Positions 1,610-15,279 of a stretch of DNA of 15,279 nucleotides are shown in pieces. How positions within the stretch are numbered: position 1 is the stretch's first letter; every line of letters begins with the position of its first letter. Under the pieces are notes generated by a model that was given only the letters and a program-made list of their open reading frames with translations, searched no databases and was not told the DNA's origin. Location of the stretch: the IMG/VR virus record IMGVR_UViG_2531839149_000015; one strand, 5' to 3'. This DNA is from a virus (Duplodnaviria; Heunggongvirae; Uroviricota; Caudoviricetes). The position numbers and the translations under genes were made by a program.

Positions 1610-1865
1610 CAGCTTGCGTAGCCCTGACAGTCTGTTTTGAGCGAACAGTGGACATTTTCAATGGCATTCTTGAGTAGGTTACGCTTAGACCAGAAGTAAG
1701 AGGTGATAGAATTATCAACAATACATAAAACATAGGGGATCCTTATTGATTTATTGATCTTGACCAACTTATGTGATGCAGTATGTCTTTAACTTGTATT
1801 ACTATTATCTTTATCTTTATCTTGTTGTTTCTAATAAACTTATCTTATTTCAGAAAGGAGTTTTT

Positions 1866-3566
1866 ATGCATTTAGTCACGAAATCTTATTTCGATGCCTT
1901 TTGCAAAGCATTCGCTGCGCCCTATGAGGAGACCAAAAATTTTGAGGCGTTTGTGAACTATTGTGCTTTTTCAAAATACTCAGGCGACAAAGTTGAGGTC
2001 AGTGATCTTGTGTATGAAGGCCCGGACCCTGGTATTGATGGAGCATTTTTATTTTTAGACGACAGAGCCATTTTTTCAACTGAAGAACTTCAGGAGATTT
2101 TCCAAAACTCACGTCGCGAGTTTCAAGTTTCATTAGTATTCACGCAAGCTAAGTCATCGGAGAAGTGGAGCAAACAGGAAATAGACTCTTACATTGCGTC
2201 AATAAGAGATTATCTTTCACCAGCGCCACAACAACCCCACAGTGAATATCTAGCGGACTTTAAAAAAATGTTCAACTTGATATTTGCTAATATCGGCAGA
2301 GTCAAAAATGGCCTTCCAGACTTATACGCATATTTTTTTAGTGCTGCACAAAATACAGAGGCCAGAGAAATAAAAGCTGCATTTGCATCGGGTGAAAAAA
2401 GCTTAAAGTCACTCGGGTTTTCACATGAAACATCCTTCATTATGGCTCACAAAGACATGATTCATGAGCTTTGGCTTGCTGCGGAAGGTCCAATAGAAGC
2501 TAAACTTCCTACAATAGGCTATGCTCCATTCCCAGCGGCCCCTAATATTAATAATGCCTATGTAGCTACAGTCAAAGCTCGTAGTTTTATTGATTCTATA
2601 CTTAAAGACAAAAATGGAAACCCTCGAAAAAAATTATTCGAAGAAAATGTTAGAGATTTTCTGGGAATTGATGGTGACGTAAATTCAGAAATTGCAGGAA
2701 CACTAGATACTGATGGAAAAAAAGCAAGATTTGGTTTAATGAATAATGGAGTGACAATAGTTGCATCAAGCGTGAGGCCTGCAGGGCAAGAAATTTTTAT
2801 ACGAGATTTTCAAATTGTTAATGGATGTCAAACGTCTAATGTTCTTATATCAAAAGACATTCAAGTAGATGAATCAGTTAGTTTAATGATTAAATTAATT
2901 GAAACCGATGAGCCAGCGATCCTTGATGACATTGTACGAGCTACGAATAGACAATCTAAAGTTGAAGATGCACAGTTCATTTCAACGCTAAAAAAATTAA
3001 GGGAATTAGAACATTATTTTAATGCTAAAGGTGCTATTGAAGGAAATAAAATTTATTTTGAGAGAAGAAAGGGGCAGTATAGTTCAGAAAGTATAGCTCC
3101 AGTACGCATATTTGATATCAGAGAAGTTGCGCGAGCATATGCTGCTATTGTTATGATGAGACCAGATTATTCCAGTCGTTATCCAAATAGGTTAACTGGT
3201 GACTTACTTAATGAGGTTTTCTCTTCCGATGCCCTCGAGGATGATTATTATATATCTTGCTATTGCTTGTATAGGCTAAAGGCTCTTATCTCAAATAAGA
3301 GGTTTGATGGGAAGTATTCAAAATTACGCTGGCATATTCTAACTGCTGCGTCAAAATACTGTGGTAATAATTATAAGGCTTGGGGGTTCAAAAATAAAAA
3401 TGAAGCTCTTCATAACTTATTCTCAATGAATGATGGGGAGTGGTTTGAAAAACTTGAGAGTTTAGTAAAAATAGCTATACCAGATCCGGATATTTCTCGA
3501 GACTTACTAAAGTCGCAGCCTTTAACATCAACGATTCTCAAAAGTGTTGATAGCGTACCTAAATAA
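1866..3566 (+). CDS. AIPR-like abortive-infection protein (ParB/DndB-like fold with NGxQT-type motif); cargo gene between int and xis
   Basis: Strong RBS AAAGGAG (1854-1860) then ATG 1866; the ORF-track start at 1773 is an AT-rich leader artifact. 566 aa, markedly AT-rich versus flanks. Contains GIDG near the N-terminus and FQIVNGCQTSNVL in the middle, which I associate with the AIPR family. Followed by hairpin 3573-3591. Confidence 0.6.
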   Translation: MHLVTKSYFDAFCKAFAAPYEETKNFEAFVNYCAFSKYSGDKVEVSDLVYEGPDPGIDGAFLFLDDRAIFSTEELQEIFQNSRREFQVSLVFTQAKSSEKWSKQEIDSYIASIRDYLSPAPQQPHSEYLADFKKMFNLIFANIGRVKNGLPDLYAYFFSAAQNTEAREIKAAFASGEKSLKSLGFSHETSFIMAHKDMIHELWLAAEGPIEAKLPTIGYAPFPAAPNINNAYVATVKARSFIDSILKDKNGNPRKKLFEENVRDFLGIDGDVNSEIAGTLDTDGKKARFGLMNNGVTIVASSVRPAGQEIFIRDFQIVNGCQTSNVLISKDIQVDESVSLMIKLIETDEPAILDDIVRATNRQSKVEDAQFISTLKKLRELEHYFNAKGAIEGNKIYFERRKGQYSSESIAPVRIFDIREVARAYAAIVMMRPDYSSRYPNRLTGDLLNEVFSSDALEDDYYISCYCLYRLKALISNKRFDGKYSKLRWHILTAASKYCGNNYKAWGFKNKNEALHNLFSMNDGEWFEKLESLVKIAIPDPDISRDLLKSQPLTSTILKSVDSVPK

Positions 3567-8110: not shown

Positions 8111-8737
8111 TTAGAGTTCGTATTGAACTCCTTTGACTACACCAATGATAAGGCAATTACCATTGATAGGGATGTTGGGATACCGAGGATTTAATGGTAC
8201 TAAAAACTTTTGAGGGCCATCGATGACTAATTTTTTTACTGTAGCTTCGTTTGTTCCATCAAGTCGAGCGATGACTATTTTTCCATGACGAGGTTCTGCA
8301 TCTGGATCTACAATCACTGTTGCGCCTTCTGGTATTGTTGGGAGGCCATTAGGGTTAGTCATGGAGTCACCTTTAACCTCTAATGCAAATGAGTTATCAC
8401 CAACCTTTAATGATGTATCTACCCACTTGTCCACTTCACTAAACACTTCTGCTGCCCTGCACTCAGTAAACTGCCCAGCCTGAACCCACGATATTACAGG
8501 AACTCTGCGCATGTTTGTGACGAGTTTGCCTTCAAACTCAGCACCATAAAGAATGTAATCTATTGACGTATTGAAGAACTTCGCTAATTTCGAAAGTGCC
8601 TCCCCACCAGGGGTATTGATGTCTTTCTCCCAGTACCCCACAGCAACGTCGCTTACTCCACAAAATTTACCCAATTCTTTCTGGGACGTTCTGGTAACTC
8701 TTCTCAGAGCTTTTATACGCTGACCAACCGTTTCCAT
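8111..8737 (-). CDS. cI: CI-like repressor (XRE-type HTH plus S24 LexA-like autopeptidase domain)
   Basis: 208 aa; N-terminal HTH (QKELGKFCGVSDVAVGYWE), C-terminal S24 signature with GDSM serine and KKL lysine; divergent from a cro-like gene. Confidence 0.85.
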   Translation of the reverse strand: METVGQRIKALRRVTRTSQKELGKFCGVSDVAVGYWEKDINTPGGEALSKLAKFFNTSIDYILYGAEFEGKLVTNMRRVPVISWVQAGQFTECRAAEVFSEVDKWVDTSLKVGDNSFALEVKGDSMTNPNGLPTIPEGATVIVDPDAEPRHGKIVIARLDGTNEATVKKLVIDGPQKFLVPLNPRYPNIPINGNCLIIGVVKGVQYEL

Positions 8738-8759: not shown

Positions 8760-8822
8760 CTAAGTAATCTTAGTTTTTATTGACCAAAGATAGATTTGTA
8801 ATTAGCATCTAATAAAACTTAG
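8760..8822. promoter_or_regulatory. Divergent immunity promoter/operator region (two palindromic 14-mers flanking a sigma70-like promoter)
   Basis: O1 CTAAG-TAAT-CTTAG (8760-8773); -35 TTGACC (8780-8785); 17-bp spacer; -10 TAGCAT (8803-8808); O2 CTAAT-AAAA-CTTAG (8809-8822); RBS GGAGG (8826-8830); cro ATG 8835. Confidence 0.5.
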
Positions 8823-8834
8823 TTTGGAGGGCGT

Positions 8835-9035
8835 ATGACAACTGACGATATCGAAAGCTACTTCGGCAGTATTGAGAAAGTTGCTGCTTTTTTCGGCATA
8901 ACAACTGAAGCCGTTTATCAGTGGCGAAACCGTCCGGGCCAGTTAATTCCAAAAGGACGTGCAGCAGAAGCTGCATATAGAACTTGCGGACGGTTGCCAT
9001 TTAAACCTGAGCTTTATGAAAAATCTAATGGATAA
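8835..9035 (+). CDS. Cro-like small HTH regulator (YdaS/Cro-type)
   Basis: 66 aa; HTH (EKVAAFFGITTEAVYQWRNR); first gene of the rightward operon opposite cI. Confidence 0.7.
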   Translation: MTTDDIESYFGSIEKVAAFFGITTEAVYQWRNRPGQLIPKGRAAEAAYRTCGRLPFKPELYEKSNG

Positions 9036-9630
9036 ATCGATTAACAGAAACCACAGAACGATGAGGCTAACCGTGGGTAAGCATCACTGGAAAGTAGAAA
9101 AACAGCCTGAGTGGTACGTGAAAGCTGTCAGAAAAACTATCGCAGCGTTGCCGGGGGGTTACGCTGAAGCAGCTGACTGGCTGGATGTAACAGAGAACGC
9201 ATTATTTAACCGCCTTCGTGCCGATGGCGATCAGATTTTCCCGCTGGGATGGGCAATGATTTTGCAACGTGCTGGTGGAACTCACTTCATTGCTGACGCT
9301 GTGGCGCAGTCTGCAAATGGCGTCTTTGTGTCTCTTCCTGACGTCGAGGATGTGGACAACGCCGATATTAACCAGCGTCTGCTGGAAGTCATTGAACAGA
9401 TCGGCAGTTATTCAAAACAGATTCGTTCAGCAATCGAAGACGGTGTAGTGGAACCGCATGAGAAGACAGCAATTAACGACGAGCTGTATCTCTCAATTTC
9501 GAAGCTGCAGGAGCATGCAGCACTTGTCTACAAAATTTTTTGCATTTCAGAAAGTAATGACGCCCGCGAGTGTGCAGCTCCGGGCGTCGTGGCGTCGATT
9601 GCTTCTGGTTGTGGAGAAACTAACGCATGA
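9016..9630 (+). CDS. CII-like / YdaT-type phage regulatory protein
   Basis: Start uncertain (ATG 9016 or 9028, overlapping the cro end; ORF track begins 8959). Position after cro and general features suggest a CII/CP76-type regulator; assignment is by synteny and memory. Confidence 0.5.
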
Positions 9631-9965
9631 ACAGTTTAACAACACACTACCGTCGCTCGCAACTGATTGCGCTTCCTGTACCGGGTGGAAAAGCGAAGGT
9701 GGAGTATTGCTATGCAGTAAATGTACCAGGTGACAGGGAAATTGTAACCCACAGCTTTGCAGAGTGGGCTGTGGGTGATTTCAACCGGCAGAAGGAGACA
9801 GTCCTTTGCGACAAGTTAACCGCTGGTTCAAAGATCACTACGGAGTGCCCGTCAGAGTCATTCGTTGGGAACCGGAAACACAACGGGTTATCTACCTCCG
9901 CGAAGGCTATGAGCATGAGTGCTTCAGCCCGCTCGAACAGTTTCGTCGTAAATTCAGGGAAATAG
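9627..9965 (+). CDS. Hypothetical ORF coupled to the upstream gene; 3' portion probably not real
   Basis: ATG overlaps the upstream stop (ATGA). The C-terminal half is Ser-rich and low-complexity, and it overlaps a better-looking ORF in another frame (9806-9985). Confidence 0.3.
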
Positions 9966-9985
9966 AGGTCGGTCATGAGCACTAA
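9806..9985 (+). CDS. Small conserved phage protein (59 aa, TTG start); resembles DUF4222-type proteins found upstream of replication genes
   Basis: RBS AAGGAGA (9792-9798) 7 nt before TTG 9806; translation [59 protein letters not shown] has natural-protein composition; stop overlaps the start of the replication gene (coupling). Not in the ORF track because of the TTG start and length. Confidence 0.45.
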
Positions 9986-10916
9986 ATTAACCGGCTATGT
10001 ATGGGATGGTTGCGCTGCATCAGGCATGAAGTTATCCAGCGTGGCAATTATGGCCCGCCTGGCTGATTTCAGTAATGACGAAGGTGTGTGCTGGCCATCA
10101 ATTGAAACCATTGCCCGTCAGATTGGCGCGGGGATGAGTACCGTCAGAACGGCTATCGCACGGCTGGAAGCAGAAGGCTGGTTAACGCGTAAGGCGCGTC
10201 GCCAGGGTAACCGCAATGCGTCGAATGTTTATCAGCTTAACGTTGCGAAGCTTCAGGCAGCGGCATTTTCTCAACTGTCAGATTCTGACCCGTCAAAATC
10301 TGACGCATCAAAATCTGACCCGTCAAAATTTGATGCGTCGAAATCTGGCAAAAAAGCGGGTTTTCACCCGTCAGAATCTGGCGGGGATCCGTCAGTAAAA
10401 TCAAAACATGATCCGTCAGATAAAAAACCTTCTCGTCCGGACGCTTCGCAACCGGACACGCAGACGGATGAACAGGATTTTTTAACTCGCCATCCTGATG
10501 CGGTTGTATTCAGCCCTAAAAAGCGCCAGTGGGGGACGCAGGATGATTTGACCTGCGCACAGTGGCTCTGGAAAAAAATCATCGCCCTGTACGAGCAGGC
10601 TGCCGAATGTGACAGCGAGGTGGTTCGTCCCAAAGAACCGAACTGGACAGCCTGGGCAAACGAAATTCGCCTGATGTGTGTGCAGGATGGTCGTACTCAC
10701 AAACAAATCTGCGAGATGTACAGCCGCGTCAGCCGCGATCCGTTCTGGTGCCGTAACGTGCTCAGCCCGTCGAAGCTGCGGGAAAAATGGGATGAGCTTT
10801 CCCTGCGCTTATCGCCGTCCGTCAGCACGTACACAGAAAAACGCGAAGACCCGTACTTCAAAGCCAGTTACGACAATGTGGACTACAGCCAGATCCCGGC
10901 AGGATTCAGGGGGTGA
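9975..10916 (+). CDS. Phage replication initiation protein (N-terminal winged-helix DNA-binding domain, pentapeptide-repeat linker, C-terminal domain)
   Basis: 313 aa; N-terminal HTH (SIETIARQIGAGMSTVRTAIARLEAEGWL); central PSKSD/ASKSD repeats encoded by 15-bp DNA iterons; occupies the gene-O position after the cII-like gene. Confidence 0.75.
   Translation: MSTKLTGYVWDGCAASGMKLSSVAIMARLADFSNDEGVCWPSIETIARQIGAGMSTVRTAIARLEAEGWLTRKARRQGNRNASNVYQLNVAKLQAAAFSQLSDSDPSKSDASKSDPSKFDASKSGKKAGFHPSESGGDPSVKSKHDPSDKKPSRPDASQPDTQTDEQDFLTRHPDAVVFSPKKRQWGTQDDLTCAQWLWKKIIALYEQAAECDSEVVRPKEPNWTAWANEIRLMCVQDGRTHKQICEMYSRVSRDPFWCRNVLSPSKLREKWDELSLRLSPSVSTYTEKREDPYFKASYDNVDYSQIPAGFRG
10275..10349. repeat. Five contiguous 15-bp iterons inside the replication gene (candidate origin), with degenerate copies to about 10427
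   Basis: CTGTCAGATTCTGAC / CCGTCAAAATCTGAC / GCATCAAAATCTGAC / CCGTCAAAATTTGAT / GCGTCGAAATCTGGC; further CCGTCAGAATCTGGC (10368), CCGTCAGTAAAATC (10389), CCGTCAGATAAAAAA (10413) with A-rich stretches. Confidence 0.6.
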
Positions 10917-10918
10917 GC

Positions 10919-11407
10919 ATGAGTCTTTTGAATGACGTTCAGAAATTCATTGAAGCCCATCCGGGCTGTACTTCCGGAGACATTGCGGATGCTTTTGCAG
11001 GTTACTCACGGCAGCGCGTTCTGCAGTCAGCAAGCAAGTTACGTCAGAGTGGGCGTGTGGCTCACCGTTGTGAAGGAGATACACACAGACATTTCCCGCG
11101 CCTGACTGAGAGAGCGCAGGATCCGGAACCACAACCAGTTCGTGAAACCAGACCTGTGCGCAATTTCTATGTCGGCACTAACGACCCGCGGGTGATTTTG
11201 TGCCTGACCCGCCAGGCGGAAGAACTGGAGTCCAGGGGCTTATACCGTCGTGCTGCAACGGTGTGGATGGCGGCATTCCGTGAAAGCCACTCCCTGCCAG
11301 AACGAAACAATTTTTTGGCGCGTCGTGAACGGTGTTTACGGAAAAGCAGTAAGCGGGCTGCATCAGGTGAAGAGTGGTATCTCTCAGGGAATTACGTGGG
11401 GGCTTAA
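10919..11407 (+). CDS. Hypothetical protein with C-terminal PerC-like motif
   Basis: ATG 10919 (RBS AGGGGG; overlaps upstream stop). C-terminal LTRQAEELESRGLYRRAATVWM closely parallels RKAEELESKGLYRRAAARWM of the PerC-family ORF at 13738. No Walker motifs, so not a P/DnaC-type helicase loader. Confidence 0.6.
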   Translation: MSLLNDVQKFIEAHPGCTSGDIADAFAGYSRQRVLQSASKLRQSGRVAHRCEGDTHRHFPRLTERAQDPEPQPVRETRPVRNFYVGTNDPRVILCLTRQAEELESRGLYRRAATVWMAAFRESHSLPERNNFLARRERCLRKSSKRAASGEEWYLSGNYVGA

Positions 11408-12060
11408 TGAGTAATAAATATTGCCAGGCGCTGGTGGAACTGCGGAACAAACCAGCCCATGAACTGAAGGAAGTGGGCGATCAGTGGCGCACGCCGGACA
11501 ACATTTTCTGGGGAATTAACACCCTGTTTGGCCCGTTTGTTCTGGATCTGTTCACTGACGGTGATAACGCCAAATGTGCTGCGTATTACACGGCGGAAGA
11601 CAACGCGCTGGCGCATGACTGGTCAGAACGCCTTGCGGAGCTTAAAGGTGCTGCCTTTGGTAATCCCCCATACAGCCGCGCCAGTCAGCATGAGGGGCAA
11701 TACATCACCGGCATGCGTTACATCATGAAGCATGCCAGTGCCATGCGTGATAAAGGCGGGCGCTATGTTTTCCTGATCAAAGCTGCCACCAGCGAAGTGT
11801 GGTGGCCGGAAGATGTAGAACATATTGCTTTTATTCGCGGGCGTATTGGTTTTGAACTGCCTGCCTGGTTTATCCCGAAGGATGAGAAGCAGGTGCCGAC
11901 AGGCGCTTTCTTCGCTGGTGCTATTGCTGTTTTCGACAAGACCTGGAAGGGACCGGCAATCAGCTACATCGGGCGCGATGAACTTGAGGCATGTGGTGAG
12001 GCCTTTCTGGCGCAGATTCGCCAGCAGGCAGAAAAACTGGTCAGGGAGATGGCGGCATGA
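11407..12060 (+). CDS. Phage-type DNA N6-adenine methyltransferase
   Basis: Start at ATG 11407 overlapping the upstream stop; catalytic NPPY motif (AAFGNPPYSR); size about 217 aa typical of phage Dam-family enzymes. Confidence 0.8.
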   Translation: MSNKYCQALVELRNKPAHELKEVGDQWRTPDNIFWGINTLFGPFVLDLFTDGDNAKCAAYYTAEDNALAHDWSERLAELKGAAFGNPPYSRASQHEGQYITGMRYIMKHASAMRDKGGRYVFLIKAATSEVWWPEDVEHIAFIRGRIGFELPAWFIPKDEKQVPTGAFFAGAIAVFDKTWKGPAISYIGRDELEACGEAFLAQIRQQAEKLVREMAA

Positions 12061-12383
12061 CGACGTTAACTCAATGCCAGCAGCAGGTGCTGGATATGCT
12101 GATTTCTTATCAGAAAGAACGCGGCTTCCCGCCAACCAATCAGGAGGTGGCAACCATGCTGGGATACCGTTCGGTGAATGCAGCGGTGGAGCATCTTCGC
12201 GCACTGGAGAAAAAAGGCGTCATCACGATAAAGCGTGGTGTGGCCCGGGGGATCACGCTTCATACCGCGGTGAAGGACGACGACAGCGAGGCGGTCGGGA
12301 TTATCCGCTCACTGCTTGCCGGTGAGGAAAACGCAAGGCTGCGTGCAGCCCACTGGTTACATGAGAGGGGGCTGAAAGTATGA
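12057..12383 (+). CDS. LexA N-terminal DNA-binding-domain-like protein (no peptidase domain)
   Basis: 108 aa; MTTLTQCQQQVLDMLISYQKERGFPPTNQEVATMLGYRSVNAAVEHLRALEKKGVI parallels the LexA winged-helix domain; ends without an S24 domain. ATGA overlap with the Dam stop. Confidence 0.6.
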   Translation: MTTLTQCQQQVLDMLISYQKERGFPPTNQEVATMLGYRSVNAAVEHLRALEKKGVITIKRGVARGITLHTAVKDDDSEAVGIIRSLLAGEENARLRAAHWLHERGLKV

Positions 12384-12592
12384 AGCTGATTCTGCCTTTT
12401 CCACCCAGCGTGAACACCTACTGGCGACACCCCAACAAAGGGGCATTTGCTGGTAAGAGCCTGATAAGCGCGGCGGGGCGAAAATTCCAAAGTGCGGCGT
12501 GCACAGCAATAGTTGAGCAGTTACGTCGTCTGCCGAAACCAACGTCGGCACCTGCTTCAGTGGAGATCGTGTTGTTTCCTCCGGATATCTGA
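12380..12592 (+). pseudogene. rusA: Truncated rusA (Holliday-junction resolvase) N-terminal fragment
   Basis: LPFPPSVNTYWRH matches the RusA N-terminal motif; the ORF stops after ...VEIVLFPPDI (70 aa), where full-length RusA would continue with its catalytic acidic residues. No continuation in other frames; downstream sequence is unrelated. Confidence 0.65.
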
Positions 12593-12665
12593 CGTGATAA
12601 ATCGCGTTACATGACATCTCATGTTGTGCTGGTGGTTATCACGACGTTCTGAATCTGGCCTTTGC

Positions 12666-12698
12666 CTGATATTTTGCGACAAGTACGCGCGCGTAGCA
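12666..12698. repeat. Copy A of a ~35-bp imperfect direct repeat containing palindrome TACGCGCGCGTA
   Basis: CTGATATTTTGCGACAAGTACGCGCGCGTAGCA; about 75 bp downstream of the rusA fragment. Confidence 0.55.
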
Positions 12699-12721
12699 TC
12701 GACAGCATACACATTGGATAT

Positions 12722-12943
12722 TCATTTTGTGACCAATGCGATAAGTAGCGGGATAAGAATTGATAAAATCAACAGGCCGATGATCCACTTTTGATTTTCA
12801 CTGGCCTTATCTCTATTTTCATCAATCTTATCAATAATTCGACGCTCCAAGCCGTGCATATCACCGCGAATGGCAATCATCTCATTGCGAACATCCGAGA
12901 AGTGGTTGGCTTGATGTTCAATGTGTGGCGTTCTGCCTTTCAT
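12722..12943 (-). CDS. Small tail-anchored membrane protein (73 aa), unknown function
   Basis: Hydrophilic charged N-terminal region and a single C-terminal hydrophobic helix (WIIGLLILSILIPLLIALV); downstream of and co-oriented with the RHH-like gene. Confidence 0.5.
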   Translation of the reverse strand: MKGRTPHIEHQANHFSDVRNEMIAIRGDMHGLERRIIDKIDENRDKASENQKWIIGLLILSILIPLLIALVTK

Positions 12944-13022
12944 TCCTGATCCTCACCTATCGTCACCACCTGCTGGTGTATAAAGGTATTGGCCCAAGCA
13001 GCTTTCCAATGGGCACTCATGT

Positions 13023-13478
13023 TTATACGCTGACCTTACAATCAATCACCGCTTTTAACTTTTCAGCATTGCTTCCCTGACGCTTCCACGCGCTGTAAAT
13101 ATCTTTATCCCACGCTTTACCAGCTTTTGTTTGATAGCCTGCTTCATTGATCCGTTCAGCTATCACACGCCCATTATCAAATCCCTGTCGGATGGTATCG
13201 GCAATGATCTTTATAACTGCCGTTTCGTTATATGGCTTTGGTGGGATGTTCGGCTTTCCGGCAATAAGCGACGCAGCAGCTTTTTCCATGCGCTCCACCA
13301 GCCCAAGCATTCGTGAATCAATAGACTTTTCCGGCTGTCCCAGCTTCATGCGAATCGCATCAACAAGCCAGGAGGTTTTATCCCCTCCAGAAGCGAGAAC
13401 AGACCGATTAAACTCATCCTGCAATTCAGATGGGATGCGGAACGCGACCAGATTAGATTTGCTCATTGCAAAGACCAT
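13023..13478 (-). CDS. Putative DNA-binding regulator (ribbon-helix-helix-like N-terminus)
   Basis: N-terminal SNLVAFRIPSELQDEFNRSVLASGGDKTSWLVDAIRMKL resembles Arc/CopG-type RHH; C-terminal AGYQTKAGKAWDKDIYSAWKR resembles a recombinase-type DNA-binding helix. Start ambiguous (ATG 13478 or 13466); no clear SD. Confidence 0.55.
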   Translation of the reverse strand: MVFAMSKSNLVAFRIPSELQDEFNRSVLASGGDKTSWLVDAIRMKLGQPEKSIDSRMLGLVERMEKAAASLIAGKPNIPPKPYNETAVIKIIADTIRQGFDNGRVIAERINEAGYQTKAGKAWDKDIYSAWKRQGSNAEKLKAVIDCKVSV

Positions 13479-13580
13479 ATCAGTGAGTAATATCCATACA
13501 GTATATCACTGTATAACACTGTTATACGCTCAAATATCAGCCAGAAAATAACGGGCCAATCACAAAGCTATCGCTGTGTT

Positions 13581-13701
13581 GTTGGTTCAGAGCTGGGCTG
13601 TGTTGGTTCAAAATGAGTTGATGTTGGTTCAATATTTTAGAAAAAACATAATAAAAACAACGATCTTTACAAATTGAACCAACTGAACCAACTGAACCAA
13701 C
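13581..13701. repeat. Iteron-like array: three GTTGGTTCA direct repeats phased at 21 bp, then three tandem inverted copies TGAACCAAC
   Basis: GTTGGTTCA at 13581, 13602, 13623; TGAACCAAC at 13675, 13684, 13693; AT-rich spacer between; lies between divergent genes (13478 minus, 13738 plus). Confidence 0.6.
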
Positions 13702-13737
13702 ACCTTTTTGCTTATCTATATAATCTGAGAGGCAGAA

Positions 13738-14019
13738 ATGATAAGGGACAGGAAAGCTGAAGAGCTGGAGTCAAAAGGGCTATACCGGAGAGCTGCCGCA
13801 CGATGGATGGAAGTCATGCTGTTATGCAGCGAGGACGATGATCGGGAATGGATAAAGCGCCGCCGTGAAACGTGTCTGGAGAACGTGAAGCGCCCGCCCG
13901 TGAAGGTTGAGGAATTTGGCGACCTGCATAAAGCTGTTACCGAAACGCAACACCGCATGGGGATAGCGCAACCGAACGGTAACGCCTTCCGGTTAAATGG
14001 CGGCAAGAGGCAAAGGTAG
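13738..14019 (+). CDS. PerC-family transcriptional activator (Pch-like)
   Basis: 93 aa; MIRDRKAEELESKGLYRRAAARWMEV... matches the PerC/Pch signature as I recall it; RBS GAGAGG upstream. Confidence 0.6.
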   Translation: MIRDRKAEELESKGLYRRAAARWMEVMLLCSEDDDREWIKRRRETCLENVKRPPVKVEEFGDLHKAVTETQHRMGIAQPNGNAFRLNGGKRQR

Positions 14020-14055
14020 ACCACCAGAGGGAAATCATCCTCTGGCTGGCGGTTT

Positions 14056-14090
14056 CTGGTATTTCGGGACAAGTACGCGCGCGCGTAGCA
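14056..14090. repeat. Copy B of the ~35-bp imperfect direct repeat
   Basis: CTGGTATTTCGGGACAAGTACGCGCGCGCGTAGCA; three mismatches and a 2-bp CG expansion relative to copy A; about 40 bp after the PerC-family stop. Confidence 0.55.
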
Positions 14091-14316
14091 CCCAATCGGT
14101 GAGGAAATAGCGGCGACCTGAATGGTCAAAATCACAACGCAGCTATCCCCGTAAGCAGCGCTTAACGGAATAGCAGTAACCTGAATCCAGTGGGGAGGGG
14201 GTAGTCAAATCTCTACAGCCCTGACTATCCGGGACTGCCCGCCCCATCGTTTTTTTATACCCGCGAAAAATGAAATTTAATCCGGGCGTGTTTCATCCTT
14301 CCAGAGGGTATGACGT

Positions 14317-14502
14317 ATGACACCACGCGAAATAGCTTTATTGACCACCGCCAAACTGGAGCACGAAGGCCACCAGCTAACCCCGGCAGATCAACGGGAG
14401 ATAGAACGCTCAGTTAATGCCAATATAGCCCGGCGTGACAAATTTCGCGAAATGATGCGATCCCCCGCCTACCAGTGGAAGAAGCCTGCGCCGCGCAGGT
14501 AG
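14317..14502 (+). CDS. Small hypothetical basic protein (61 aa)
   Basis: ATG 14317 preceded by AGAGGG; hydrophilic with a basic C-terminus; no recognisable motif. Could be a partner of the downstream Panacea gene or a spurious ORF. Confidence 0.35.
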   Translation: MTPREIALLTTAKLEHEGHQLTPADQREIERSVNANIARRDKFREMMRSPAYQWKKPAPRR

Positions 14503-14823
14503 ATTACCTTTATTCACCTTTATATATTCGAACAACAAAACCTCTCGCAGGTCTCGCCAATAAAGGGATATAGCAGTAACTATGACCGCCGAATGGCAAA
14601 GCTACGATGCAAGTCGCTGGTTTCCAAACTTGAGGTTTCCAGGACGGTTTCAACCAAATTGCGGATTATCAGCCAAACGCACCGGGTATCTTGCGCGGTG
14701 GATGGTGAGCCATCACGCAGAATCTTTAAATGGCATTTTACGATGGGCAATACCCGTGGTTATATGCGATTATTAACGGTAGTGGACAGTTATAGACGAA
14801 AACATACGGCAGGAGATTGGATA

Positions 14824-15279
14824 ATGGCAGTTACAACCCTTAACAGCGTAGCGGATTACCTGCTTTGCTTTGCTCAAGAGCATGGGGATGTTATGACGCC
14901 GCTGAAACTGCAAAAAATGGTGTTCTATGCTGATGCTTGGTTCATGGCGCTGAATGATGGCGAAGAACTGGTTGCTGACAAGTTTGAAGCATGGGTACAT
15001 GGCCCTGTAGCCAGAGATTTGTATACCAGATTTGCAGATTACAAATGGCGCTCAATAGACGAAGAGATTGCCTGCCCTGAGTTACCTGCGAATGTGTCAA
15101 AGCATCTAAAGGAAATCTATGAGGTATTTGGCGGTTATACAGCTTATGAGCTGGAGCAGATGACGCACCAAGAAAAGCCGTGGCTGGAGGCCCGTGAAGG
15201 GGTTCCATCAGATGCGCCGTGCAAGAATGTTATTGATAAAAGTGTAACGGCTGAGTTTTATCGTTCGATGGCTTCCTAA
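14824..15279 (+). CDS. Panacea-domain (DUF4065) protein, PanA/SocA/GepA-like putative antitoxin
   Basis: Start set at ATG 14824 (RBS AGGAGA 7 nt upstream) rather than the ORF-track start 14593. 151 aa with TPLKLQKMVFYADAWFMALNDGEEL, matching the Panacea signature as I recall it. Stop is at the last base of the window. Confidence 0.7.
   Translation: MAVTTLNSVADYLLCFAQEHGDVMTPLKLQKMVFYADAWFMALNDGEELVADKFEAWVHGPVARDLYTRFADYKWRSIDEEIACPELPANVSKHLKEIYEVFGGYTAYELEQMTHQEKPWLEAREGVPSDAPCKNVIDKSVTAEFYRSMAS

Follow-up and report, generated by a model that had tools for sequence, protein, structure and literature searches.

A predicted lambda-type replication origin inside the initiator gene of a lambdoid prophage that encodes no helicase loader, and the DnaT-like peptide that ends the initiator

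The window analysed here is a 15,279-nucleotide stretch of viral DNA (Caudoviricetes; IMG/VR record IMGVR_UViG_2531839149_000015) that comprises the early region of a lambdoid prophage of Escherichia coli or Shigella. It carries a gene for a 313-residue replication initiator of the O family (9975-10916, + strand; phrog_391 'replication initiation O-like', E 2e-135), and comparison with relatives indicates with high probability that the segment 10275-10460 within this gene is a lambda-type replication origin, read by the protein whose linker it encodes. The module encodes no helicase loader, and the initiator ends in a short peptide resembling the C-terminus of the host primosomal protein DnaT. 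That this tail serves helicase recruitment is a tentative suggestion, plausible without being probable; the combined reading of a lambda-type origin in a loader-less variant, with a function provisionally ascribed to the tail, is likely to hold.

Five contiguous 15-bp repeats, pointed out in a sequence-only reading that preceded this analysis, are present inside the initiator gene at 10275-10349 (iterons 1-5), and a sixth in-frame 15-bp unit (CCGTCAGAATCTGGC; iteron 6) lies beyond them at 10368-10382, with two mismatches to the consensus and at the equivalent place (residue ~132) in many relatives. Tandem Repeats Finder describes a period-15 array at 10284-10347 (4.3 copies, 81% matches), for which it also gives a period-30 reading (88%). 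With at most three mismatches allowed, the consensus CCGTCAAAATCTGAC has six sites on the + strand, at 10275, 10290, 10305, 10320, 10335 and 10368 (3, 0, 2, 2 and 3 mismatches in the five contiguous units), and two extra matches on the - strand that are echoes of the palindromy of the units. These eight matches compare with 0.38 expected, none of 200 shuffled sequences reaches eight, and the consensus is found nowhere else in the 15.3-kb window at this threshold. Every unit holds a 13-bp near-palindrome, GTCA(A/G)A(A/T)TCTGAC (inverted repeats I6, I7 and I14). Translated in frame, the units read LSDSD-PSKSD-ASKSD-PSKFD-ASKSG ... PSESG, pentapeptides of the form (L/P/A)S(D/K)(S/F)(D/G), in agreement with the PSKSD/ASKSD linker previously read from the repeats. 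Between iterons 5 and 6 lies a spacer (10350-10367) with an A6 run (10350-10355) and a small, conserved, hairpin-forming inverted repeat, CGGGTTTTCACCCG, which a terminator scan flags as a - strand stem-loop (10370-10357).

The iterons behave as DNA elements across 80 related loci, sampled at one genome per species. All 64 genes with an N-terminal domain at least 72% identical to that of the window's initiator contain one to six copies of the 13-bp motif (at most two mismatches); all 253 copies are in frame and fall at residues ~99-142, and the 64 genes span many genera of Enterobacterales and several different C-terminal domains and tails. The motif is absent from all 14 full-length genes with an N-terminal domain no more than 65% identical, and the diverged N-domain groups have other repeats at the same place, such as units of the TTGACCCCTCAA/TTGAGGGGTTAA type or five copies of GGTCAAAATG. 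Outside the initiator genes of the 80 loci there are 14 matches in about 1.2 Mb, both strands included. The units are specific to one type of winged-helix N-terminal domain, a pattern that fits binding sites for a dimer. In a sister group of initiators (L009, L010, L013, L014, L076 and L011; N-terminus MSSKLHGLVWEGCA..) the linker iterons are TTGACCCCTCAAAT / TTGAGGGGTTAACGG, which recall the lambda iteron core TCCCTCAAAACGAGGGA. A remnant of the K-12 CPS-53 type (L004 and L005) has seven motif copies 5' of a truncated YfdO-like open reading frame (ORF) of 122 residues that still ends in SQIPAGFRG; its dead initiator gene keeps what is predicted to be an intact set of binding sites.

Codon usage in the linker points in the same direction. 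At sites chosen by peptide alone (311 S-x-S tripeptides in 79 distinct linkers), TCA encodes the first serine in 86% of cases and TCT the second in 75% (background in the same genes, 17% and 10%), and the middle codon remains RAW though the residue may be K, E, D or N. Synonymous constraint, measured as the share of sequences with the majority codon in a codon alignment of 57 genes of the same N-domain group, has values of 0.55 and 0.59 in the folded N- and C-domains and of 0.87 in the iterons; it is 0.86-1.0 over spacer codons 128-133, reaches the gene maximum of 0.97 at residues 137-150 (10383-10424), and is 0.80 at residues 151-165. Amino-acid conservation of the linker is below that of the N-domain. 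Among near-identical viral contigs (n=80) the protein has 308, 313, 318 or 323 residues and five to eight units, so that iteron number varies by whole 15-bp units while the protein frame is kept, a favourable outcome of a check suggested in the sequence-only reading; these relatives come from an IMG/VR scan that returned sequences 96-100% identical only, and they inform on copy number and provide no independent test of tail against loader. More distant homologues have from almost none to about nine units. The pattern that would have spoken against an origin, iterons absent from orthologues in which the protein linker is conserved, was not found: the repeats are conserved as DNA and not as protein. 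Together the results show that selection acts at the DNA level from about 10269 to about 10460, a stretch slightly wider than the 10275-10427 first given.

To the right of the iterons lies a conserved A-rich box (10383-10430) with two copies of GATCCGTCAG(T/A) 24 bp apart, which is a candidate region for unwinding and helicase entry. The half-site copies of GATCCGTCAG are at 10385-10394 and 10409-10418. The box, GATCCGTCAGTAAAATCAAAACATGATCCGTCAGATAAAAAACC, is common to groups with different iterons, and it contains at least two GATC sites in 56 of 66 genes (29 per kb, against 3.4 per kb elsewhere in the gene). Only this conserved pair stands out, GATC not being enriched over the full window (45 sites versus 57 expected). 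The right arm of the constrained region (TCTCGTCCGGACGCTTCGCAACCGGAC, 10431-10460) stands at the position of a lambda-like palindrome of relatives. In L008, L020 and L016 the box is followed directly by TCGTC.G.GAATTCTGGCGAATCC, the sequence 3' of the A/T-rich region in the lambda origin, and because this lambda right-arm sequence comes next in relatives, the box is taken to be positionally equivalent to the lambda unwinding region. Matches to the DnaA box (TTWTNCACA, at most one mismatch) number 40 in the window versus 34 expected, none of them in the origin, the nearest being at 9684 and 10567; a plasmid-like, DnaA-assisted design was rejected as the leading model, DnaA boxes being at chance level and missing from the origin.

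An adenine methyltransferase gene (Dam, MT-A70 or D12 class) is located just 3' of the initiator gene in most of the related loci, and its product is sometimes fused to PAPS-reductase, ParB or C5-methylase domains. The window encodes a phage Dam-type N6-adenine methyltransferase at 11404-12060 (+ strand; Pfam Dam, E 3e-45). A link between this gene and the conserved GATC pair of the origin is speculative; by analogy with oriC and P1 oriR, it hints at methylation-controlled initiation.

The initiator is a mosaic of an HTH_36 winged helix, a linker predicted to be disordered and encoded by the probable origin, a lambda-O C-domain and a tail also predicted to be disordered. An AlphaFold2 model based on 28 homologues contains a winged-helix N-domain at residues 1-98 (9975-10268, + strand; H-H-H-H-E-E pattern; per-residue confidence, pLDDT, 68-87), which is presumably the DNA-binding domain that reads the iterons, a linker predicted to be disordered at residues 102-164, a confident helical C-domain of lambda-O type at residues 165-280 (10467-10814, + strand; pLDDT 80-92), and a disordered C-terminal tail at residues 283-313 (10821-10913, + strand; pLDDT about 40). 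The N-domain matches Pfam HTH_36 (residues 23-70, E 4e-11), and Foldseek relates it to winged helix-turn-helix (HTH) regulators of the MarR/ArsR type (probability 1.0, E 3e-3 to 2e-2). In the PDB, Foldseek gave weak matches for the N-domain only and nothing for the C-domain, and a sequence search with the initiator gave MarR-type HTH proteins only and nothing for the last 50 residues; neither search found a solved structure related to the C-domain or the tail. BLASTP aligns the initiator with lambda O at 31% identity over 216 residues (E 7e-26), most strongly at residues 182-277. By tblastn the C-domain is 39% identical to the O C-domains of lambda, 21 and 933W (E about 1e-17), and it also matches phi80 gene 15 (E 4e-18) and the HK140 O protein. 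The C-terminal domain is homologous to that of lambda O, and this homology, together with the lambda right arm in relatives, upholds the earlier comparison with lambda, which has its origin inside gene O. The N-domain does not belong to the Phage_rep_O family (PF04492), the Pfam scan giving HTH_36 instead, whereas a comparable scan of lambda O itself gives PF04492 at E 6e-36. N-domains of the O family are exchangeable modules. By the domain map and the homology to lambda O, the flexible linker encoded by the repeats is that of an O-family initiator.

No P, DnaC/IstB or DnaB domain is encoded in the window, and no loader is encoded in SfII (whole early region), mEp460 or LLS, which extends to whole phage genomes the earlier remark that no loader of the P or DnaC type is visible. 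The gene that follows the initiator gene (10919-11407, or from a GTG start at 10913; + strand; YfdN/PerC(ANR)-like; phrog_1324 'transcriptional activator') had been noted to lack Walker motifs, and its product indeed has no ATPase domain. It matches Pfam PerC (PF06069) at residues 98-149 with E 4e-8, above the curated cut-off, and NCBIfam ANR with 23 bits, below the cut-off of 32. This PerC-like gene follows 21 of the 51 initiators that end in the GFR motif of the tail and is absent in LLS; it is an optional neighbour of the module and not a helicase loader. SfII, a sequenced Shigella phage, has a module 98.9% identical to that of the window, and SfIV has the same module (97.9% identical), both with no loader. 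SfIV forms plaques (PMC3851460). LLS, which forms plaques on K-12, possesses an 'O family protein' with the same N-domain, iterons, GATC box and tail type and a C-domain of the Phg_2220_C type. Of the two options originally left open, that the initiator recruits the host loader directly or that the module is incomplete, the latter is rejected because the plaque-forming SfIV and LLS, as well as SfII, encode no loader, and the former gains a candidate in the DnaT-like peptide. According to Zheng et al. (2025), an O homologue stands alone in 34 of 314 lambdoid phages, an O-only type whose replication they described as 'not yet understood'; their text as searched has no mention of DnaT and no discussion of an intragenic origin (PMC12315714).

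The end of the initiator (..DYSQIPAGFRG) and the end of E. coli DnaT (..EPDSQIPPGFRG) are identical at eight of nine positions, and both proteins stop there; the last nine residues of the initiator, SQIPAGFRG, are encoded at 10887-10913. The ends of relatives (..VNHISEPDTEIPPGFRG) match DnaT (..VNTVSEPDSQIPPGFRG) at 13 of 17 positions (E 3e-7). An alignment of 107 DnaT orthologues, in which I-P-x-G-F-R-G is nearly invariant, supplied its last 34 columns for a hidden Markov model (HMM) of the DnaT tail, which was searched against all 2750 ORFs of the 80 loci. Its top 33 matches are all initiator C-termini (21 at E<0.01, the best at 3e-10), and no ORF other than an initiator falls below 0.01 among the 2750. 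Conservation within the initiators is complete at G310 and R312 and at least 90% at P308 and F311. Some DnaT proteins and some phage initiators share a variant ending in GFRGAK, and the models of DnaT and of the initiator both show a flexible tail. Outside the tail the two families are unrelated: hhalign aligns nine tail columns and nothing beyond, and the initiator has neither a Pfam match to the three-helix DNA-binding domain of DnaT (PF17948) nor a counterpart of its N-terminal oligomerisation domain. A DnaT-like C-domain, suggested by a weak second BLAST segment, was rejected on the hhalign result, which shows homology in the nine-residue tail only. The name 'primosomal protein' for phage initiators is a misnomer caused by the tail; as 'primosomal protein (I)' it is in use for SfII, SfIV, Kati, Klebsiella phage 1 LV-2017 and 1720a-02, where it rests on 9-17 residues.

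The distribution of tails was compared with that of loader genes. The C-domains were typed against references, single-linkage clustering having merged all of these mosaic proteins, and loaders were identified by Pfam and phmmer in place of a Walker-A regular expression, which had given one chance match in the 80 loci and missed DnaC-like proteins. The GFR tail is present at 51 loci, where phmmer detects no homologue of lambda P, DnaC or DnaB downstream. It occurs on three unrelated types of C-domain (O-type, 13; Phg_2220_C, 37; mEp460-type, 1), and a recombination joint with mEp460 and Stx2c phages is located at about 10841, just before the tail; the tail behaves as a mosaic module of its own. 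A tail of the ..HWNSPEAWENTL type is present at seven loci, on C-domains of the O or Phg_2220_C type, and all seven have a lambda-P gene (PF06992) directly downstream, as does the single locus (L011) with a lambda-O-like ..NTDWI.G tail. A further 18 loci have a ~65-residue WKE/WQQ extension and no loader. The initiator of an Erwinia locus (L009) is 59% identical to that of the window over residues 1-284, with identity well above this in the C-domain, and then continues with the other tail and P, by its sequence a near-natural tail swap. Across the loci, the DnaT-like tail and P are mutually exclusive, and the tail is one loader-less solution and not the sole one.

The extension mentioned above defines a third loader-less class, found in Yersinia, Rahnella, Buttiauxella, Providencia and Proteus. 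Its conserved end, ERDxAxxRxIG...W..IW(K/Q).., lies within the last ~70 residues of the initiators of L036, L064, L068, L070, L012, L015, L016 and L019, has no Pfam match, and may be another helicase-recruiting device. Another initiator (L069:3777-4679) ends in ..GDIPEGFNQNLPATNQGGTDDDFI, an IPxGF motif followed by a tip like the C-terminus of SSB (DDDIPF), and the gene that follows it encodes a DnaC homologue (phmmer E 3e-66).

A mechanism can be proposed in which initiator dimers would fill the iteron palindromes and the bound initiator would distort or open the adjacent box, probably with the help of transcription from pR. A pR-like promoter is predicted 5' of cro (8780-8808, + strand; TTGACC-17-TAGCAT, a consensus match only), and transcription from it would cross cro, the cII-like gene, the ymfM-like gene, and the initiator gene with the origin. 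Since the phage encodes neither P nor DnaC nor DnaB, the initiator itself would bring in host DnaB. The leading candidate for its handle is the C-terminal peptide IPxGFRG, a copy of the conserved, flexible C-terminus of DnaT, and DnaT is the adaptor through which the restart primosome receives DnaB/DnaC. The tail may bind DnaB-DnaC directly or, less likely, may engage DnaT or PriA/PriB, which would then load DnaB. The DnaB/DnaC recruitment step in restart has been described as unknown (PMC13377028). A more general and more doubtful proposal is that (EPD)xxIPxGFRG is the handle by which DnaT recruits DnaB-DnaC in restart, and that lambdoid phages have repeatedly captured it from dnaT onto unrelated initiators, which would let them deliver the host helicase to their own origin in place of an encoded loader.

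Several observations weigh against the interpretation of the origin or of the tail. The iterons are contiguous at 15 bp, versus a centre-to-centre spacing of 20-24 bp in lambda, and the AT content of the box is moderate (52-55% over 66 bp and about two-thirds over a 35-bp core, compared with 47.5% for genes). Three prophage copies (P0015, P0016 and P0018), which may be defective, have lost nearly all iterons. The window's own tail matches DnaT weakly when taken alone (E 0.009, 0.038 and 0.001), and the resemblance is convincing only through the family-wide pattern. One locus with the GFR tail (L074) has a neighbouring gene for an IstB/DnaC-like ATPase by Pfam, all 18 of the loader-less WKE/WQQ-type initiators manage with no DnaT-like tail, and the loci are phylogenetically related, so that the counts of tails and loaders are not independent events. 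Published data on C-terminal truncation of DnaT show an effect only on the cooperativity of binding to single-stranded DNA (PMC4132743), and a cryo-EM paper of 2026 proposes the N-domain of DnaT as the contact with DnaB/DnaC (PMC13377028). The literature searched, which included few subscription journals, yielded no experiment on this origin or on members of its family, no partner assigned to the DnaT tail, and nothing on this origin, on a role of the extreme C-terminus of DnaT or on a DnaT-like peptide in phage initiators.

Among other explanations, the one that survives best accepts the origin and has the tail plug into the restart machinery (PriA, PriB or a DnaT filament) instead of DnaB-DnaC, a primosome of the PriA/DnaT type being assembled at the opened origin or at recombination intermediates. 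DnaT acts in the PriA/PriB/DnaT preprimosome, and its C-terminal truncation lowers cooperativity on single-stranded DNA (PMC4132743, PMC13377028); host RecBCD improves the growth of LLS, a phage with the same tail and iterons and an abundance of Chi sites (PMC12315714); recombination-linked replication therefore matters for such phages. However, the natural swaps exchange the tail for one that is paired with P, a DnaB binder, which points to the helicase-delivery step, and published structures place the PriA and PriB contacts of DnaT on its C-terminal domain and linker, not on its tail. This explanation is unlikely, and direct engagement of DnaB-DnaC is preferred as the function of the tail.

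It is less probable again that the likeness to DnaT is meaningless, having arisen by chance or been left behind neutrally when dnaT recombined, and that DnaB comes by way of the C-domain or, as in iteron plasmids, of host DnaA. The match of the window's own tail spans only nine residues (E 0.009), initiators of the WKE/WQQ type dispense with the tail, and the plasmid initiators pSC101 RepA and R6K pi contact DnaB directly. On the other hand, chance or neutral descent accounts poorly for near-invariant positions (G310, R312, P308 and F311) within a disordered tail, for a module that travels among three unrelated types of C-domain, for HMM matches exclusive to initiator C-termini, and for the anticorrelation of tail and P; and no cluster of DnaA boxes lies near the iterons.

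With regard to the origin, the units might bind the initiator for regulation only (titration, incompatibility, or a roadblock or autoregulation of downstream genes), replication starting elsewhere. Plasmid iterons also act in copy control, and unwinding of this DNA is a prediction. This is nevertheless quite improbable, since the position and order of the elements match the lambda origin (between two domains; iterons, A-rich box and, in relatives, the right arm) and the motif is found nowhere else in the window and is nearly absent outside the initiator genes of the 80 loci. It is very improbable that the repeats matter only at the protein level, as a linker of low complexity prone to slippage, and that the origin lies elsewhere. 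The region does encode a linker predicted to be disordered, and the number of repeats varies as slippage would have it, but synonymous conservation is much higher here than in the folded domains and amino-acid conservation lower, each of the two serines in a unit keeps a codon of its own across genera, the middle residue changes the sign of its charge while the nucleotides stay RAW, each unit is palindromic, and the sequence tracks the type of N-domain. The idea that the YfdN/PerC-like protein is an unrecognised helicase loader, which takes its appeal from a gene co-transcribed in the position of lambda P, is the least probable of all, given a PerC/ANR regulator domain in place of any ATPase or P-like domain, the presence of the gene after only 21 of the 51 initiators with the GFR tail, and its absence from the plaque-forming LLS.

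The predicted origin shares with lambda ori/O and with phi80 gene 15 its place in the part of the gene that codes for the linker joining the N-terminal DNA-binding domain to the C-terminal one; the lambda iterons are annotated inside gene O. It also shares with lambda ori the tandem iterons with internal dyad symmetry followed by an A-rich stretch. Lambda differs in having a Phage_rep_O N-domain in place of HTH_36, iterons of 18-19 bp that are spaced in place of contiguous 15-bp units, a P gene that is missing here, and an O tail (..LTNTDWIYGVDL) that is replaced here by the DnaT-like tail. The O-only module of LLS agrees in N-domain, iterons, GATC box, tail type and lack of a loader, and differs in its C-domain (Phg_2220_C type in LLS, lambda-O type here). 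E. coli DnaT (primosomal protein I) shares the terminal ..(EPD)xxIPxGFRG, flexible in both models, but no homology outside it, and the initiator has no Pfam DnaT domain. Like the iteron plasmids (pSC101 RepA, R6K pi and F RepE), the module would rely on one initiator, tandem iterons beside an A/T-rich region and host DnaB-DnaC. Origins of iteron plasmids are intergenic, contain DnaA boxes and are served by Rep proteins of the WH1-WH2 type, whereas the origin here is intragenic, has no cluster of DnaA boxes and is served by an O-like protein. No match to Rep_3 was found in the initiator, only a sub-threshold one to RP-C (E 0.005), and the AlphaFold2 model has one winged helix and a helical O-type domain instead of a WH1-WH2 fold. 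There is a weak profile likeness to replisome organisers of the SPP1 G38P type and to DnaD-like proteins (phrog_2514 'DnaD-like helicase loader', E 1e-28; Pfam DnaD_N, E 1e-3), and matches to the 'replisome organizer' of Bacillus phages cover residues 191-278. In the G38P group, too, the organiser gene contains the origin; these systems encode their own loader and helicase, unlike the module described here.

The origin segment has matches in 2059 of 5426 complete E. coli genomes and is at least 80% covered in 1944 of them, the K-12 CPS-53 remnant being included. The module is also present in serotype-converting phages of Shigella, and the same tail is found on other initiators in Stx2-converting phages. 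Iterons inside a gene of the O type are classical, and O-only modules have been noted before; what appears to be new is the definition of this origin, the rule that relates N-domain type to iteron type, and the link of the tail to DnaT with its anticorrelation to P. To the question of how O-only phages replicate, the analysis offers a defined origin, a specificity rule and a candidate mechanism. The C-terminal peptide is the only part of DnaT borrowed by phages, and only where a loader is lacking, which makes it a short candidate for the contact with DnaB/C; if the proposal is true, O-only phages are a natural experiment that identifies the DnaT-DnaB/C contact. Iteron types could sort such prophages into replication-specificity groups and serve initiator-dependent vectors.

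In gene order the window starts with an integrase gene (386-1609) and an AIPR gene (abortive-infection phage resistance), followed by leftward early genes. The AIPR gene (1773-3566, 597 residues) adjoins the integrase gene and is likely to be prophage-borne defence cargo. An S24 repressor (8111-8737, - strand) is followed by cro (8835-9035), a YmfL/CII-like gene (8959-9630) and a YmfM-like gene (9627-9965) ahead of the initiator gene, and a protein with a LexA-type DNA-binding domain (12057-12383) is encoded after the Dam-type methyltransferase. The segment 9627-11407 is 97.5-99.3% identical to Kati, SfII, SfIV and other phages. Likeness to known phages ends at ~12588, some 208 nucleotides into a rusA-like ORF (12380-12592), and nothing in the phage collection closely matches 12588-15279; from ~12588 onwards the prophage may be mosaic or cut short, and this copy may be defective, while its replication module is intact. 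Beyond ~12588, an ORF that runs from 14593 to the end of the window encodes a SocA/Panacea antitoxin domain, and short tandem repeats are located at 13501-13522 and 13675-13701 (three copies of TGAACCAAC).

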